A stretch of 64,000 bases of DNA from Promethearchaeota archaeon (GTDB taxonomy: Archaea; Asgardarchaeota; Lokiarchaeia; Sigyniarchaeales; SOKP01), in contig JAUVNS010000004.1 in the NCBI GenBank assembly GCA_030599585.1, forward strand, positions 128,001 through 192,000, given 5' to 3'. Position numbers and translations under genes: made by a program. How positions within the stretch are numbered: the first letter of the stretch is position 1; every line of letters starts with the position of its first letter. The notes under the pieces were generated by a model, which worked only from the letters and a program-made list of their open reading frames with translations, did no database searches and had not been told where the DNA came from. Shown here in pieces: positions 4,779-9,794 of this stretch.

Positions 4779-5516
4779 ATGTCAAAAGAAATACCACAAA
4801 ATGAAAATGATAAGAGTGATAAACCACTTCCTCTTTGGACAATAGCACTCATCCCAGTTTACATTTCTGTTTTATTTATACTCATGTTTTTCCCCCTCGC
4901 TCAAGATTGGTTATGGATTGAAGCTTGGTTATTCATCGTATCATTTGTTATTAATATGACAATCAGTTTCTTTATCATAAACAAGAAGAATCCGCGAGTT
5001 CTTCGGAACCGGATGAAGGTGAAGAAAGTCGGTGTCACAGAGAAAACAAAAAGTTCAGCAGGATCAGATAAATTTTTATTGCCGATTCTTGCTATCGGAT
5101 TTATTGGAGCATTTATACTGCCTGTATTCGATTACCGTTATCAATGGTCTTCAATTCATTTCATAGTGGAGATTATAAGTCTTGTGGTTGCGAATATTGG
5201 ACTAATAATAATGGATATCGCAATGGTACAAAATGCATACGCCTCAAAAGTACTTGATATAAACAAAGACCAAAAACTCATTGATACAGGATTATATAGT
5301 CATGTTCGCCATCCTCTCTACTCGGGGGCATTTTTAATGATGCTTGGACTGCCCATTGCGCTAGGATCGTGGATATCATTAATTCCTGCTACAATCGGAG
5401 TAATATCCTTAATAATCCGAATAAAATTCGAGGAGGAAATGCTCATTAAGGGAATGGAAGGCTATGATGAATATCGAATTCGAGTAAAATACAAAATAAT
5501 CCCTAAAATCTACTGA
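4779..5516 (+). CDS. Isoprenylcysteine carboxyl methyltransferase (ICMT/PEMT) family membrane protein
   Basis: Several TM segments; LIDTGLYSHVRHPLYSG and RIKFEEEML...Y..Y motifs. Confidence 0.88.
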   Translation: MSKEIPQNENDKSDKPLPLWTIALIPVYISVLFILMFFPLAQDWLWIEAWLFIVSFVINMTISFFIINKKNPRVLRNRMKVKKVGVTEKTKSSAGSDKFLLPILAIGFIGAFILPVFDYRYQWSSIHFIVEIISLVVANIGLIIMDIAMVQNAYASKVLDINKDQKLIDTGLYSHVRHPLYSGAFLMMLGLPIALGSWISLIPATIGVISLIIRIKFEEEMLIKGMEGYDEYRIRVKYKIIPKIY

Positions 5517-5628: not shown

Positions 5629-7062
5629 ATGAATGAAGAAACGGAAGAAATTTTAACAATTATAGCTGAAAAAGCACAGCTAGCAGAAGGCGTTGAAGGA
5701 GTTAGATCAATCCTCCTTACTATGTTTCGCTTTCCTTCATTAAAAAACAAAAAAGTTTCCCAAAAAACTGGAATCGCTATCCCTGCCCTAGCAGCAGCTC
5801 GGGGTGAGTTAGTAAAAGCAGGAATCGTAGAAAAGAAAAATTATCTTGGCGAAAAAGGCAGAACTTGGATTCGTAAAAATTTGAACTTAAAATTTGAGTA
5901 TGATCCTCTTCCAAATAATTTTGACTTGTCTTTAGCTGAAATTCCAGAAGAATATGCTTCTATTAATAAAATAAAAGAAATTTTAAATAATCGTCCTGAA
6001 CCAGATTTTGCATTAGACCAATCACATGCCATTTCTACTACAGTAATAAATCGTGCTCTTTATCTCTTAAAAAAAGGAGATATAGAGGGAAGGAAAATAG
6101 TATTCCTTGGGGATGACGACGCTACTTCTTTAGCCGTTGGCTTATTGAACTTAACTGAAGAAATAACGGTCATAGATATCGATCCTAACGTCTTAAAATT
6201 TCTTTCAGAGAGTGCAAATACCCTTTCTTTAAAAAATTTCACTGTTATTTCGCACGATCTCAGAGATCCCTGCCCTACTAATATTCTTAATAATTATGAT
6301 ATTGTTTTGATGGATCCTCCTTATACTAATGAAGGGTTACGTTTATTTCTAAAAAGAGCTAAACAAGTTTTAAAAACTAGCATAGTTATCGAAGGAAATA
6401 TGCATAAAGTTTTAGGTAAAAAATGTCTCTTATCCTTTGGAAACAAACCACCCAAAGAAATGCTACATATTCAACTATCTATTTTAGATCATGGATTCAT
6501 AATAAAAGAAATGATTCCATATTTCAATCTTTATAAGGGAGCAAGTATATTGGGCCAGTTTAGTCACCTCTATTATATAGAATTAGCTGAAATTCAAAAC
6601 ATAGAGGATACATTAAGTTTAAATGCGCTCCCAATATACACTTCCGAACTAAAAAAAAGAAAAACTAATCCTTACCGTCCTATTGGATATCATTTTGTTG
6701 GAGAAATGCGTTTTACAGACCAAAACTTCCTTTTAGAAAATGAAAAAATTCAAAAAATCTTTCTAGACTCGCTAACTTACGCAGATTTAATAATTTACGA
6801 CATATTTCACCACAATTACCAACCATTTGGATATAGTGCTGTTGCCATACTTAAAACAAGTCATGCAGCAATTCATACCTGGCCAGAACACGGATATATT
6901 AGCGTTGATATATTTATATGTGACGAGTTCTCTAAAGGATTAGAAGTCCTAAAATTCTTGAAAAATCATTTTAAACCCGAAAAATATGAGTTTCTTTATA
7001 TGGAGCGAGGGAAGGGTTCTATGATTAAATATGAACCACTCGATTTAGAAAACAAGAGATAG
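5629..7062 (+). CDS. Branched-chain polyamine synthase (BpsA/DUF43) fused to C-terminal pyruvoyl-dependent S-adenosylmethionine decarboxylase (SpeD/SpeH class)
   Basis: BpsA motifs RPEPDFALDQ, GDIEGRKIVFLGDDD (GDDD at 6109-6120), IDIDP, HDLRDP, MDPPYT. From about 6685: GYHFVGE...QPFGYSAVAILKTSHAAIHTWPEHGYISVDIFIC...ERG, the AdoMetDC proenzyme pattern. Confidence 0.88.
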   Translation: MNEETEEILTIIAEKAQLAEGVEGVRSILLTMFRFPSLKNKKVSQKTGIAIPALAAARGELVKAGIVEKKNYLGEKGRTWIRKNLNLKFEYDPLPNNFDLSLAEIPEEYASINKIKEILNNRPEPDFALDQSHAISTTVINRALYLLKKGDIEGRKIVFLGDDDATSLAVGLLNLTEEITVIDIDPNVLKFLSESANTLSLKNFTVISHDLRDPCPTNILNNYDIVLMDPPYTNEGLRLFLKRAKQVLKTSIVIEGNMHKVLGKKCLLSFGNKPPKEMLHIQLSILDHGFIIKEMIPYFNLYKGASILGQFSHLYYIELAEIQNIEDTLSLNALPIYTSELKKRKTNPYRPIGYHFVGEMRFTDQNFLLENEKIQKIFLDSLTYADLIIYDIFHHNYQPFGYSAVAILKTSHAAIHTWPEHGYISVDIFICDEFSKGLEVLKFLKNHFKPEKYEFLYMERGKGSMIKYEPLDLENKR

Positions 7063-7190
7063 AGTTAATAAAATAAAAAGACACTATCCTAATAGTTAAA
7101 AATTTGTATAAAAAAGTTGAGAAAATATTATAAATAATTATATAAATATTTTTTAATACTGATTGTTATCTTCTACAAGAGTTATGCGAG

Positions 7191-7844
7191 GTGCCAACCA
7201 TGGAAGAAAAAAAATTAACAGAATTAAATGATCTTAAAGAAATTGCAATAGGAAAAATAAAGTCTGCATACAATCGCTCGATTGATGCTGAAGCAACCCA
7301 TTCAGTTCTCTGGGATATCACTGAAAGAAAGAGGAATACGCTACTAAAGCTTGCTCTATTAATTAGTATTTTTATCATAGTCTTTGCTTATTTACCGTTT
7401 CTTTTTGGCGAAGTTGTAATAATATGGGTTTTTAGTTTAATTGCTGAAATTTTAGCTTTTGTAATAGCTGGATTAGTAATTTATGGAATTTTCCTTGCCA
7501 ATTATTCGAAAGCTCATAAACAACTTATTCACGCCTCTATTCTCTTGCGAAGACAGAGTCTGGATTTCCTCCAATATAAATTAGATAATTTAGATAAAAA
7601 ATCTTATATCGAAGAATTGAAGTCTTTAGAAGTAAATGATAAGGACCTAAAAGAAAAAACTCAGCTGCATACTGAAAAAATATCAACTCAATTAATAATG
7701 AGAATTACATACAATATCGAAGAACTTGAAAAAGCGGGGTTTAAAAAGCATATTATTACTCAACAAGCAATAGATTCTGCCAACGAAAAATTACAGAAAT
7801 TCACCGCGTTGAGAACTTGCGAAGCGTGGCTTAAATTTGATTAA
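7191..7844 (+). CDS. Two-TM membrane protein, SLATT-like architecture
   Basis: N-terminal helix with ATH, two adjacent hydrophobic helices, then HKQL...LLRR and a helical C-terminus. Confidence 0.5.
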   Translation: MPTMEEKKLTELNDLKEIAIGKIKSAYNRSIDAEATHSVLWDITERKRNTLLKLALLISIFIIVFAYLPFLFGEVVIIWVFSLIAEILAFVIAGLVIYGIFLANYSKAHKQLIHASILLRRQSLDFLQYKLDNLDKKSYIEELKSLEVNDKDLKEKTQLHTEKISTQLIMRITYNIEELEKAGFKKHIITQQAIDSANEKLQKFTALRTCEAWLKFD

Positions 7845-8354: not shown

Positions 8355-9794
8355 ATGAAAAATTCAACTGTTAGACTTACTTTTTTGGGGGGTGTGAATG
8401 AAGTAGGAGGAAATAAAATCCTATTAGAAGATTTCAATTATAATGTGAAAATTTTTTTAGACTTTGGAATTAACATAAAAGATTATAATGATCAATACGA
8501 TAGAAATGAAGCACCAAATTCAATCAAAGAATTAGTTAGGTTAGGATTATTACCTGAAGCGGAAAAATTATCAATCAATAATTTATATACCGACTTTAAA
8601 GCGAATGAGGACCAAGATTGTAATGATTTGGAAACCAATCTCGATGGAATTTTTGTCAGTCATCCCCATAAAGATCATTTTTTTGGATTGTCATTTGTTA
8701 ATAAAAACATACCAATATATACGGGAGTTTTTACCAAAAAAATTATTTCTGCTTATTATAAATGTTCTAAAAATTCAATCACTAATAATTATGGAGGTTT
8801 GAACTGGAGGCTGTTTCGTACGGGCGATATTCTTGATATTAAAGGATTAGAAATAATACCGGTGCATGTAGATCACTCAATCCCCGCCGCTTATGGTTTC
8901 ATCATTAAAACTTCTAACGGTATTGTTGTTTACACCGGAGATTTTCGTATGCACGGCCCTTTAGCTGCTATGACTCAAGATTTTTTAAAAGAAATAACAA
9001 ATAAAGATATTGATAAAATTGATATCTTAATCTGTGAAGGGACACATATTCATAGGGGTGCAATCGAGTCTGAAGACAATGTAGAGAAAAATATTGAACA
9101 ACTCTTCCTTGAAAACCCTTTTGATTTTTTTTTAGTAAAGTATGGACGTTTAGATTGGGATCGTTTCAGGACCTTTTCTTTAATTGCGAAGAAGTACGGT
9201 TGGAAATTTATCATCACCGAAAAAGACGCTTATTTCTATTATCTCATGAATAAAGATAAAATCTACGAAAGTATGAAAAATCCAAATATAATTGATGATG
9301 ATCACATTTTAATCCTCTCTAGAGGCAATGCAAGATATCGATGGCAAGAAAAAATAAGACAAGCGCTACATAAGGAAAAGAAGGGTTTCCGTTTTATAAA
9401 ATATGATGAAATTAAAGAGTTAAAAAGTCAATTTTTCTTCTACATTACTTCTGTTCCAAAAGATATTATTCAAAGATTAAATCCGAATCTTAGGGGGGCT
9501 TTTATATCATCTAGCATAGATCCCTACACGGAAGAATACATTGATAATCATAGAACATTAACCCATTATTTCCGTCAACATGGCATTCCTTCTTACAGAG
9601 TACATGCGTCTGGACACGCGATGCCACATCATTTAATAAACTTTATCCAGATAATCAGACCTGATTATTTAATCCCCGTTCACTCAGATCAACCGCATTT
9701 TTTTAAAACTTTTTTCAAAAATTCTGAAATTAATGTAATACTTCCTAATAAAAACGATCGATTTGAATTGCAATCAGATATAGGTGTTTCTTAA
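8355..9794 (+). CDS. Metallo-beta-lactamase/beta-CASP nuclease (RNase J-like)
   Basis: GGVNEVGGN, LDFG, SHPHKDH, VDHS, YTGDFR, CEGT, HASGHA, PVH motifs. Confidence 0.88.
   Translation: MKNSTVRLTFLGGVNEVGGNKILLEDFNYNVKIFLDFGINIKDYNDQYDRNEAPNSIKELVRLGLLPEAEKLSINNLYTDFKANEDQDCNDLETNLDGIFVSHPHKDHFFGLSFVNKNIPIYTGVFTKKIISAYYKCSKNSITNNYGGLNWRLFRTGDILDIKGLEIIPVHVDHSIPAAYGFIIKTSNGIVVYTGDFRMHGPLAAMTQDFLKEITNKDIDKIDILICEGTHIHRGAIESEDNVEKNIEQLFLENPFDFFLVKYGRLDWDRFRTFSLIAKKYGWKFIITEKDAYFYYLMNKDKIYESMKNPNIIDDDHILILSRGNARYRWQEKIRQALHKEKKGFRFIKYDEIKELKSQFFFYITSVPKDIIQRLNPNLRGAFISSSIDPYTEEYIDNHRTLTHYFRQHGIPSYRVHASGHAMPHHLINFIQIIRPDYLIPVHSDQPHFFKTFFKNSEINVILPNKNDRFELQSDIGVS

Follow-up and report, generated by a model that had tools for sequence, protein, structure and literature searches.

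A BpsA-type aminopropyltransferase fused to S-adenosylmethionine decarboxylase in a lokiarchaeial genome and its relatives in other archaea and mesophilic bacteria

Background

Two enzyme families that handle decarboxylated S-adenosylmethionine (dcSAM) are joined in a single gene at positions 5629..7062 of the forward strand of the DNA considered here, a window of 64,000 nucleotides from a Promethearchaeota archaeon of the class Lokiarchaeia (assembly GCA_030599585.1, contig JAUVNS010000004.1, positions 128,001 to 192,000). One is the branched-polyamine synthase BpsA, an aminopropyltransferase with solved structures from Thermococcus kodakarensis (Tk; TK1691, 5xnc, 5xnf and 5xnh), Pyrococcus furiosus (Pf; 2qm3) and Thermus thermophilus (Tt; 6j27). 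The other is class 1b S-adenosylmethionine decarboxylase (AdoMetDC, or SpeD), the pyruvoyl enzyme typified by Thermotoga maritima TM0655 (1tlu and 1vr7), Aquifex aeolicus 2iii and the Bacillus subtilis type.

Work with Tk-BpsA has shown that its GDDD motif (G157-D160) positions the aminopropyl group of dcSAM, that Asp225, Glu259, Tyr290 and Tyr316 are the acceptor residues, and that a flexible C-terminal acidic cluster (E339, D342-E345) serves as an aminopropyl carrier, with both Glu259 and the cluster being mechanistically important (PMC12979288). According to the same 2026 review of branched polyamines, bpsA orthologues are restricted to thermophiles (PMC12979288).

Fusions of AdoMetDC to an aminopropyltransferase are already known from Ca. 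Pelagibacter, a delta-proteobacterium and Ca. Krumholzibacteria, and animal spermine synthase was derived from them. These SpeD-SpeE-type proteins have been shown to be bifunctional by their complementation of E. coli delta-speD and delta-speE mutants (PMC11107197, PMC12803844). They carry SpeD at the N-terminus, with a PF01564 transferase borne on the alpha chain. Another means by which a class 1b SpeD can become part of a larger, self-processing polyamine enzyme is seen in the double-pyruvoyl SpeD-SpeDC fusions of Desulfotignum and Ca. Omnitrophica, where the partner is a second SpeD homologue acting as an ornithine decarboxylase and not a transferase; no SpeD-SpeD-type fusion has been reported in archaea (PMC10407285).

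The lokiarchaeial gene resembles the SpeD-SpeE-type fusions in that one polypeptide would both make and spend dcSAM. However, the order of its modules is reversed and its transferase belongs to PF01861; PF01564 found no match in the protein at E values up to 1, so it is not a member of the SpeD-SpeE type. A preliminary description of the locus, made from the sequence, had given the known SpeD fusions as SpeE-type proteins, usually with SpeD at the N-terminus, and the published examples agree with it (PMC11107197, PMC12803844). The BpsA-SpeD order is apparently a convergent second solution to the joining of donor synthesis to donor use. No description of such a fusion was found in the literature searched, including PMC11107197, PMC12803844, PMC10407285 and PMC12979288, although coverage of the literature was incomplete and the negative is not proof.

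Architecture and catalytic residues of the fused protein

The gene is one open reading frame (ORF) of 477 amino acids without internal stops, as the preliminary description had it, and the coordinates given there are all correct. Its product is best read, with a probability of roughly 0.8, as a self-processing bifunctional enzyme that makes and spends dcSAM in one module. This reading is carried by the match of each half to its family, by the conservation of the catalytic residues and by the recurrence of the same pairing in distant lineages.

In the N-terminal half, the Pfam model BpsA_C (PF01861) matches residues 112-311 with 141 bits against a cut-off of 27, covering profile positions 3-192 of 243. 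An AlphaFold2 model of the whole protein, built on 28 diverse fusions, has a mean pLDDT of 88.2, with low confidence limited to the linker (343-347) and two loops. The first 345 residues superpose on the Tk, Pf and Tt enzymes over nearly whole chains (Foldseek E values of 1e-19 to 1e-16; 346 of 354 columns at 1e-19 for 5xnc_B, and 3e-16 for 6j27), and these three BpsAs are the best matches to the transferase in the Protein Data Bank (PDB) by sequence and by fold. The high global root-mean-square deviation (rmsd) from the solved BpsAs stems from a differing orientation of the domains in the Foldseek superpositions.

Conservation was assessed in an alignment of the 28 fusions, which are 25-88% identical to the query. 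Residues D130, Q131, G161-D164, D229, P231, Y232, Y302, Y337 and T338 are invariant in the transferase, as are S411, H416, W418, E420 and C431 in the decarboxylase. By profile-to-PDB alignment, the invariant transferase positions are those of Tk D126-Q127, D159/D160, D225 and Y290. From the Tk acceptor-site set, Asp225 and Tyr290 are thus matched by D229 and Y302, and Tyr316 lies beyond the end of the profile alignment, with Y315 and Y337 as candidates. With the same winged-helix-like N-domain, Rossmann domain and GDDD, D-Q, DPP and FNxY motifs as the thermophile enzymes, the module would be expected to perform dcSAM chemistry.

The C-terminal half had been described as a pyruvoyl decarboxylase domain, an assignment that the profile and fold comparisons uphold. 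AdoMet_dc (PF02675) is matched in full (positions 1-107 of 107) by residues 355-461 at 90.7 bits against a cut-off of 25, and the equivalog model TIGR03330 (SAM_DCase_Bsu) is passed at 90.7 against 75.65. The last 125 residues superpose on T. maritima AdoMetDC (1tlu_A) with an rmsd of 1.7 Å and a TM score of 0.88 in Foldseek, and the catalytic residues map to S63, H68, E72 and C83 of that enzyme. The fused SpeDs as a group are divergent, scoring 85-102 bits to the Pfam model versus 110-134 for stand-alone Asgard SpeDs.

The processing site reads K-T410/S411-H-AAIHTWPE. Within the E-S-H self-cleavage motif, Ser411, which is invariant, and His412 are present and the -1 position is Thr. The codon for Ser411 begins at nucleotide 6859, exactly where the precursor serine had been placed, and the predicted fragments would comprise residues 1-410 (46.6 kDa) and 411-477 (67 residues, 8.0 kDa), in keeping with the C-terminal product of 7.5-8 kDa foreseen earlier. 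The SpeD domain retains every catalytic residue, and self-cleavage is expected by homology: the domain should free an 8-kDa pyruvoyl alpha chain while its beta chain stays on the BpsA module. In contrast with the free-standing class 1b enzymes, the beta chain would therefore remain on a transferase of 350 residues. A complex prediction of the BpsA part (1-345) against the SpeD part (346-477), each with its own alignment, scored 0.01, and this value speaks neither for nor against an interface or channelling of dcSAM.

A degenerate paralog of the fused protein was seen in a Promethearchaeota metagenome-assembled genome (MAG) other than the one described here. In this 478-residue protein (P0128), GDDD has become GDAD and DPPY has become DPPF, the SpeD site reads DQGLISLQAWPE, lacking both the Ser and the His, and the catalytic Cys is lost. 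In P0128, both halves are probably pseudoenzymes.

Integrity of the fused gene

The fusion is a genuine one: every one of the 120 protein clusters listed from other assemblies, at 65-96% identity, retains the fused frame with both Pfam domains. Full-length clusters among them measure 441-480 residues, and the source MAGs of the clusters are named as Lokiarchaeota, Promethearchaeota and Hermodarchaeota. Three independent DNA studies of marine sediments and cold seeps provide contigs that cover the whole gene and pass the junction without an indel, including gap-free stretches in X6 record 25 (6489-7243) and X3 record 6 (6612-6799). The sole indels among the covering contigs are a -1/+1 pair at 5715/5721 in one X5 contig of a related strain, which preserves the frame. 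An assembly artefact or a frameshift at the junction is rejected on the strength of these clusters and contigs, and neither a stop nor a frameshift between the domains, which the preliminary description had named among the findings that would undo it, was seen. A further run, X20, is labelled RNA-Seq although it is probably DNA, and covers only 6476-6695.

Polyamine genes of this genome and distribution in Asgard archaea

The genome that carries the gene is 4.85 Mb in size and 100% complete, and the contigs covering the gene come from cold seep and marine sediment. Its only PF02675 match is the fused gene, which is thus the sole AdoMetDC. Pyruvoyl arginine decarboxylase (PdaD), agmatinase and SpeE are also encoded. 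On another contig (C20:11488-13514, minus strand; L004:1243-3269), a second, very divergent BpsA-like gene lies directly upstream of a bona fide speE of 305 codons in an operon. This second gene (bpsA2) encodes 362 residues that keep GDDD, lack the D-Q motif and score 50 bits to PF01861; its match to Tk-BpsA reaches 26 bits versus 93 bits for the fused copy. Because the fused SpeD is the only AdoMetDC, we infer that it must also serve the separate SpeE and BpsA2 and so supply dcSAM to three transferases. The presence of SpeE means, in turn, that spermidine could serve as an acceptor here.

A survey of 301 genomes across the phylum found SpeD in 113. Approximately 47 of the matches lie in frames of fused length (459-507 residues), with a few more cut by contig ends, and these frames are concentrated in the organism's own family (genera g1 and g2), in family f24 (a SpeD match in 20 of 21 genomes, nearly all of fused length) and in one genome of f9. 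Other Asgard SpeD matches are stand-alone, in frames of 123-190 residues. Deoxyhypusine synthase (DHS) occurs in all 31 genomes sampled from the organism's own genus. Considering that a number of genomes in the genus lack the fusion while every one sampled has DHS, the module is accessory and hypusination independent of it.

Within the family, no more than 4 of 71 genomes encode a bona fide SpeE, and the bpsA2-speE operon was found in G000, G153 and G201 alone. SpeE is absent from 14 of the 17 fusion-bearing genomes sampled there, including some that are 98-100% complete. The fusion is present, and a bona fide SpeE absent, in four complete genomes (G071, G083, G104 and G113) and in the closed G239; no carboxyspermidine decarboxylase was found in five SpeE-less fusion genomes that do have agmatinase, the best match reaching 44 bits against a cut-off of 409. 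Other closed genomes show further arrangements. G259 has the fusion and two speE genes, G213 has SpeD and a BpsA-like protein with a zinc ribbon as separate genes without SpeE, and G038, from another family, has a contiguous speD-speE-bpsA-like operon (L092, C1:931082-933328). The BpsA-like protein of G038 has 387 residues and no zinc ribbon, and its branch is long.

Several side observations concern the wider polyamine context. DHS and agmatinase genes are adjacent and co-oriented in this genome (C9:171585-173373; L006 and L007), as they are in G083 (C13) and G113 (C20), an arrangement that resembles the agmatine-based deoxyhypusine route reportedly proposed for Haloferax. Such a route would explain how aIF5A is modified in relatives without SpeD. 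DHS-family copy number also looks anticorrelated with the fusion in the genus: genomes without it often have 3-4 copies including a tandem pair (for example G141:C197:11455-13390, G057:C27:3799-5731 and G121:C81:1793-3728), and carriers have 1-2. Conceivably, the extra copies could provide an alternative polyamine route resembling that of homospermidine synthase. In family f24, the same two membrane proteins (316 and 235-236 residues) flank the fusion on both sides with gaps of 8-38 nucleotides or short overlaps (L088:156-3227 and L089:345-3423), which may constitute a conserved operon.

Distribution in bacteria and recurrence of the fusion

The architecture is neither rare nor confined to Asgard archaea: mesophilic bacteria commonly have it, as do several Asgard classes. 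An exhaustive search of 1.84 billion protein representatives gave 4977 matches; among the best 150, which were inspected, approximately 33 are two-domain proteins of 417-564 residues at 30-41% identity. Named carriers include Odin-, Heimdall- and Hodarchaeales MAGs, Xenorhabdus spp., Vagococcus fluvialis, Erysipelothrix and a Lachnospiraceae MAG. When species-representative genomes were scanned, further carriers emerged in Enterococcus, Lysinibacillus, Cytobacillus, Siminovitchia, Bacteroides, Phocaeicola, Prevotella and Dysgonomonas. In some Firmicutes, namely Clostridium, Tissierella, Anaerocolumna and Virgibacillus, the two modules occur as separate adjacent genes instead. The architecture is therefore common in databases, as had been allowed for, yet within the literature searched it is uncharacterised.

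In the longer bacterial fusions a CxxC...CxxC zinc ribbon separates the BpsA module from SpeD, and the same ribbon ends many unfused relatives, including the Asgard G213 protein (L008, L018, L032, L033 and L039 at approximately 9000-9200; L091:1198-2472). It is absent from the Asgard fusions and from the 436-445-residue forms of Vagococcus and Erysipelothrix.

In a tree of the BpsA module, calculated without the Tk and Tt sequences, the Asgard fusions form one clade (SH-aLRT support of 99). A second clade (98) unites the fused proteins of bacteria with those encoded by adjacent genes, and the unfused G213 protein is part of its sister group. Separate from both is a third, deep clade (100) of fusions whose cleavage motif is S-N. 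On this tree the fused state is gained or lost at least five times, with three separate fused clades, and the short SpeD tree gives the same partitions. Judged from these trees, the fusion is one that arose several times, and its recurrence, together with that of gene adjacency, argues strongly on comparative grounds for a joint function of the two activities. In tblastn searches of 80 bacterial loci, the SpeE, agmatinase, PdaD and DHS of this genome had no match within 8 kb, and clustering of neighbours at the bacterial loci found no conserved partner apart from the pair itself.

The members of the third clade (P0171, P0182, P0206 and P0208) are metagenomic. Their site reads (T/N)-S-N instead of E-S-H and one has HTWEE for HTWPE, with the equivalents of the Ser, His, Glu and Cys all kept.

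Proposed function and alternatives

As a mechanism, the C-terminal SpeD would cleave itself between Thr410 and Ser411 and convert Ser411 to the pyruvoyl cofactor, leaving a 46.6-kDa chain (winged helix, BpsA module and SpeD beta chain) associated with the 8-kDa alpha chain. The SpeD domain would then decarboxylate S-adenosylmethionine (SAM) to dcSAM, and the BpsA-family module would add aminopropyl groups from dcSAM to a polyamine acceptor with release of methylthioadenosine. As the only source of dcSAM, the fused SpeD would also feed SpeE and the BpsA2 paralog. What the sequences and models establish is the architecture, the conservation of catalytic residues, the folds, the distribution, the recurrence of the fusion and its status as the only copy; autoprocessing, the two activities and the supply of dcSAM to SpeE are inferred.

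Several points weigh against this proposal. Identity of the BpsA module to characterised enzymes is low, at 24% (Tk) and 20% (Tt). Two features of Tk-BpsA that matter to its mechanism have no clear counterpart: Glu259 falls in an insertion of the profile alignment beside the nearly invariant Lys273, and the tail that follows IYT is S-E-L-K-K-R-K (one acidic residue and four basic), which runs into the linker and shows no clear resemblance to the acidic carrier cluster. In the decarboxylase, the Loki clade has Thr at position -1, where eight stand-alone Asgard SpeDs and most other fusions have Glu. Furthermore, a SpeD match is missing from 15 of the 27 genomes sampled from the organism's own genus, several of which are 100% complete, and so the gene is dispensable; contamination of the present genome is 8.9%.

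Some details bear on these points. The E. coli class 1a AdoMetDC cleaves at Lys-Ser, and Glu at the -1 position may thus not be obligatory. A loosely acidic, unconserved loop occurs at 318-327 of the fused protein, and an acidic residue two positions past YT is kept in most fusions.

What the transferase makes is a separate question, and the candidate products are branched, N4-aminopropylated spermidine, as with Tk-BpsA, or linear products from putrescine or agmatine. In most carriers the module is both the only aminopropyltransferase and the only AdoMetDC, and it might stand in for SpeE by aminopropylating a diamine (putrescine or agmatine), with spermidine, N1-aminopropylagmatine or longer linear amines as the products of a single polypeptide. 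The five complete or closed genomes with the fusion and no SpeE fit such a role, as do G213, with its separate genes, and the retention of agmatinase without carboxyspermidine decarboxylase in SpeE-less carriers. The characterised SpeD-SpeE-type fusions likewise make spermidine or spermine from putrescine (PMC11107197, PMC12803844). On the other hand, Tk-BpsA acts only weakly on short diamines (PMC12979288), and this genome keeps a SpeE, making replacement unneeded here. Xenorhabdus and Bacteroides have spermidine routes of their own, so that the module looks like an add-on in such bacteria, and import of spermidine is also possible. A substitute for SpeE is consequently a tentative reading that falls somewhat short of even odds.

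A second way to read the module is as a true BpsA (EC 2.5.1.128) that converts spermidine to N4-aminopropylspermidine and N4-bis(aminopropyl)spermidine, in which case branched polyamines would occur in a cold-sediment Asgard archaeon. The closest PDB matches and the retained GDDD, D225 and Y290 equivalents favour it, as does the BpsA-like gene directly after speD-speE in G038, and with PdaD, agmatinase and SpeE spermidine can be made in the present genome. Yet the nearest relatives of the module are uncharacterised proteins, scoring 150-200 bits versus 93 for Tk-BpsA and carrying only 'family protein' names at NCBI. With SpeE missing from most fusion genomes of the family, spermidine would usually be unavailable by known routes, and the habitat is cold seep and marine sediment while branched polyamines are reported from thermophiles only (PMC12979288). 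The fused protein also differs from the thermophile enzymes by its SpeD domain, its basic tail and its Lys273, and it groups with relatives that share an (I/L)YT-x-(E/D) motif, often have a zinc ribbon and linkage to speD, and occur in mesophiles and cold sediments. Given that SpeE is missing across most of the family, that acceptor site and tail differ from those of Tk-BpsA, and that carriers are found in cold sediments and among mesophiles, canonical BpsA activity is not to be assumed, and at 20-24% identity to the thermophile BpsAs with uncharacterised nearest relatives, neither is a branched product. The earlier claim of a complete BpsA thus holds for the fold and for the GDDD, DPP and FNxY motifs shared with the Tk and Tt enzymes, and is overstated as regards the identity, the nearest relatives, Glu259 and the acidic cluster. 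For the same reasons its corollary, that branched polyamines are implied, is not borne out; a genuine BpsA activity is, on balance, unlikely.

Less probable by far is an acceptor outside the polyamines, be it nucleic acid, protein or some other small amine, with the target bound by the winged helix or, in relatives, by the zinc ribbon. The conserved N-terminal winged helix, the CxxC...CxxC ribbon of many relatives, the conserved Lys where Tk has an acceptor-binding Glu and the lack of polyamine gene neighbours at bacterial loci would suit such a target. Against it, Tk-BpsA binds free spermidine in crystals with the same N-domain (5xnh), and BpsA-like genes lie beside speE both in G038 and on contig C20.

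The weakest alternative, that the SpeD domain has neofunctionalised to an arginine or ornithine decarboxylase (SpeDA- or SpeDC-like) and makes no dcSAM, is very improbable: such changes are widespread in bacteria and archaea (PMC10407285) and the Loki-clade SpeD has a long branch and an unusual T-S site, but the AdoMetDC equivalog cut-off is passed, H416, E420 and C431 are invariant, the domain is fused or adjacent to a dcSAM-using enzyme in many lineages, and by context no other source of dcSAM is possible in a genome that encodes SpeE and already possesses PdaD.

Features of the locus and neighbouring genes

The features of the gene are collected in Table 1. The gene just upstream (4779-5516, forward strand) encodes a membrane methyltransferase of the ICMT/PEMT family (40 bits) and is separated by an AT-rich spacer of 112 nucleotides that contains many TATA-like matches; no functional link with the fusion is evident. 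The flanking genes of the window, namely this ICMT/PEMT-type methyltransferase, an unknown membrane protein, an MBL/beta-CASP nuclease and a PadR protein, are unrelated to polyamines.

Table 1. Positions of the fused gene, its modules and its conserved residues in the 64,000-nucleotide window (aa, amino acid positions; wHTH, winged helix-turn-helix)
Feature	Position	Strand	Basis
Whole ORF P0001: wHTH, BpsA-like aminopropyltransferase and class 1b AdoMetDC, stop codon included	5629..7062	+	Pfam, NCBIfam, AlphaFold2 model
N-terminal winged-helix-like domain, ~aa 1-104, as in BpsA N-domain	5629..5940	+	Weak HTH_24/wHTH Pfam matches; model helices 3-84; profile aligns from residue 3 of Tk/Pf BpsA
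BpsA-family catalytic (Rossmann) module, ~aa 107-342	5947..6654	+	PF01861, 141 bits; Foldseek 5xnc_B, E 1e-19, 346 columns
D130-Q131, equivalent to Tk-BpsA D126-Q127; invariant in 28 fusions	6016..6021	+	Alignment, profile-to-PDB
GDDD, aa 161-164, equivalent to Tk G157-D160; invariant in 28 fusions	6109..6120	+	Alignment, profile-to-PDB; role from PMC12979288
DPPY, aa 229-232; D229 equivalent to Tk D225	6313..6324	+	Alignment, profile-to-PDB
K273, nearly invariant in fused family; at most 1 residue from position of Tk Glu259 (loop alignment uncertain)	6445..6447	+	Alignment, profile-to-PDB
F-N-L-Y, aa 299-302; Y302 invariant, equivalent to Tk Y290	6523..6534	+	Alignment, profile-to-PDB
I-Y-T-S-E, aa 336-340; (I/L)YT-x-(E/D) motif closing the BpsA module in fused and unfused relatives	6634..6648	+	Alignments
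Basic linker LKKRKTNPYR, aa 341-350, low model confidence; zinc ribbon absent, unlike bacterial forms	6649..6678	+	Alignment, model
Class 1b pyruvoyl AdoMetDC (SpeD) domain, aa 351-477	6679..7059	+	PF02675, TIGR03330; 1tlu_A rmsd 1.7 Å, TM 0.88
Predicted self-cleavage site T410/S411; Ser411 pyruvoyl precursor; -1 Thr, usually Glu	6856..6861	+	Alignment
H416-T-W-P-E420, equivalent to T. maritima His68...Glu72; invariant	6874..6888	+	Alignment, profile-to-PDB
C431, equivalent to T. maritima Cys83; invariant	6919..6921	+	Alignment, profile-to-PDB

Significance

Both enzyme families are known, and what is new is their arrangement, with the BpsA-type module N-terminal and SpeD C-terminal. Annotation conceals the fusion: NCBI names the fused proteins 'adenosylmethionine decarboxylase', mentioning the decarboxylase alone, and the unfused relatives 'bis-aminopropyl spermidine synthase family protein'. 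The range of the BpsA family is widened to mesophiles and cold-sediment Asgard archaea, in contrast to the restriction to thermophiles stated in the review (PMC12979288). Cultured carriers exist in Xenorhabdus, Vagococcus fluvialis, Phocaeicola coprocola and Lysinibacillus.

The present genome has SpeE and a second BpsA-like gene in addition to the fusion, which nevertheless remains its only AdoMetDC. In most Lokiarchaeia that carry it, the fusion is the only recognisable aminopropyltransferase, and it therefore bears on the polyamines of the closest archaeal relatives of eukaryotes. It is conceivable, as a broader suggestion that we hold tentatively, that in the fused and speD-adjacent family mesophiles have a polyamine synthase that has escaped recognition and does not depend on SpeE. 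Most Lokiarchaeia could rely on it chiefly to convert putrescine or agmatine to spermidine and longer amines; alternatively, its products in cold sediments, gut Bacteroidales and insect-pathogen symbionts could be branched or unusual polyamines. If true, branched or unusual polyamines from this family would overturn the confinement of BpsA-type chemistry to thermophiles.

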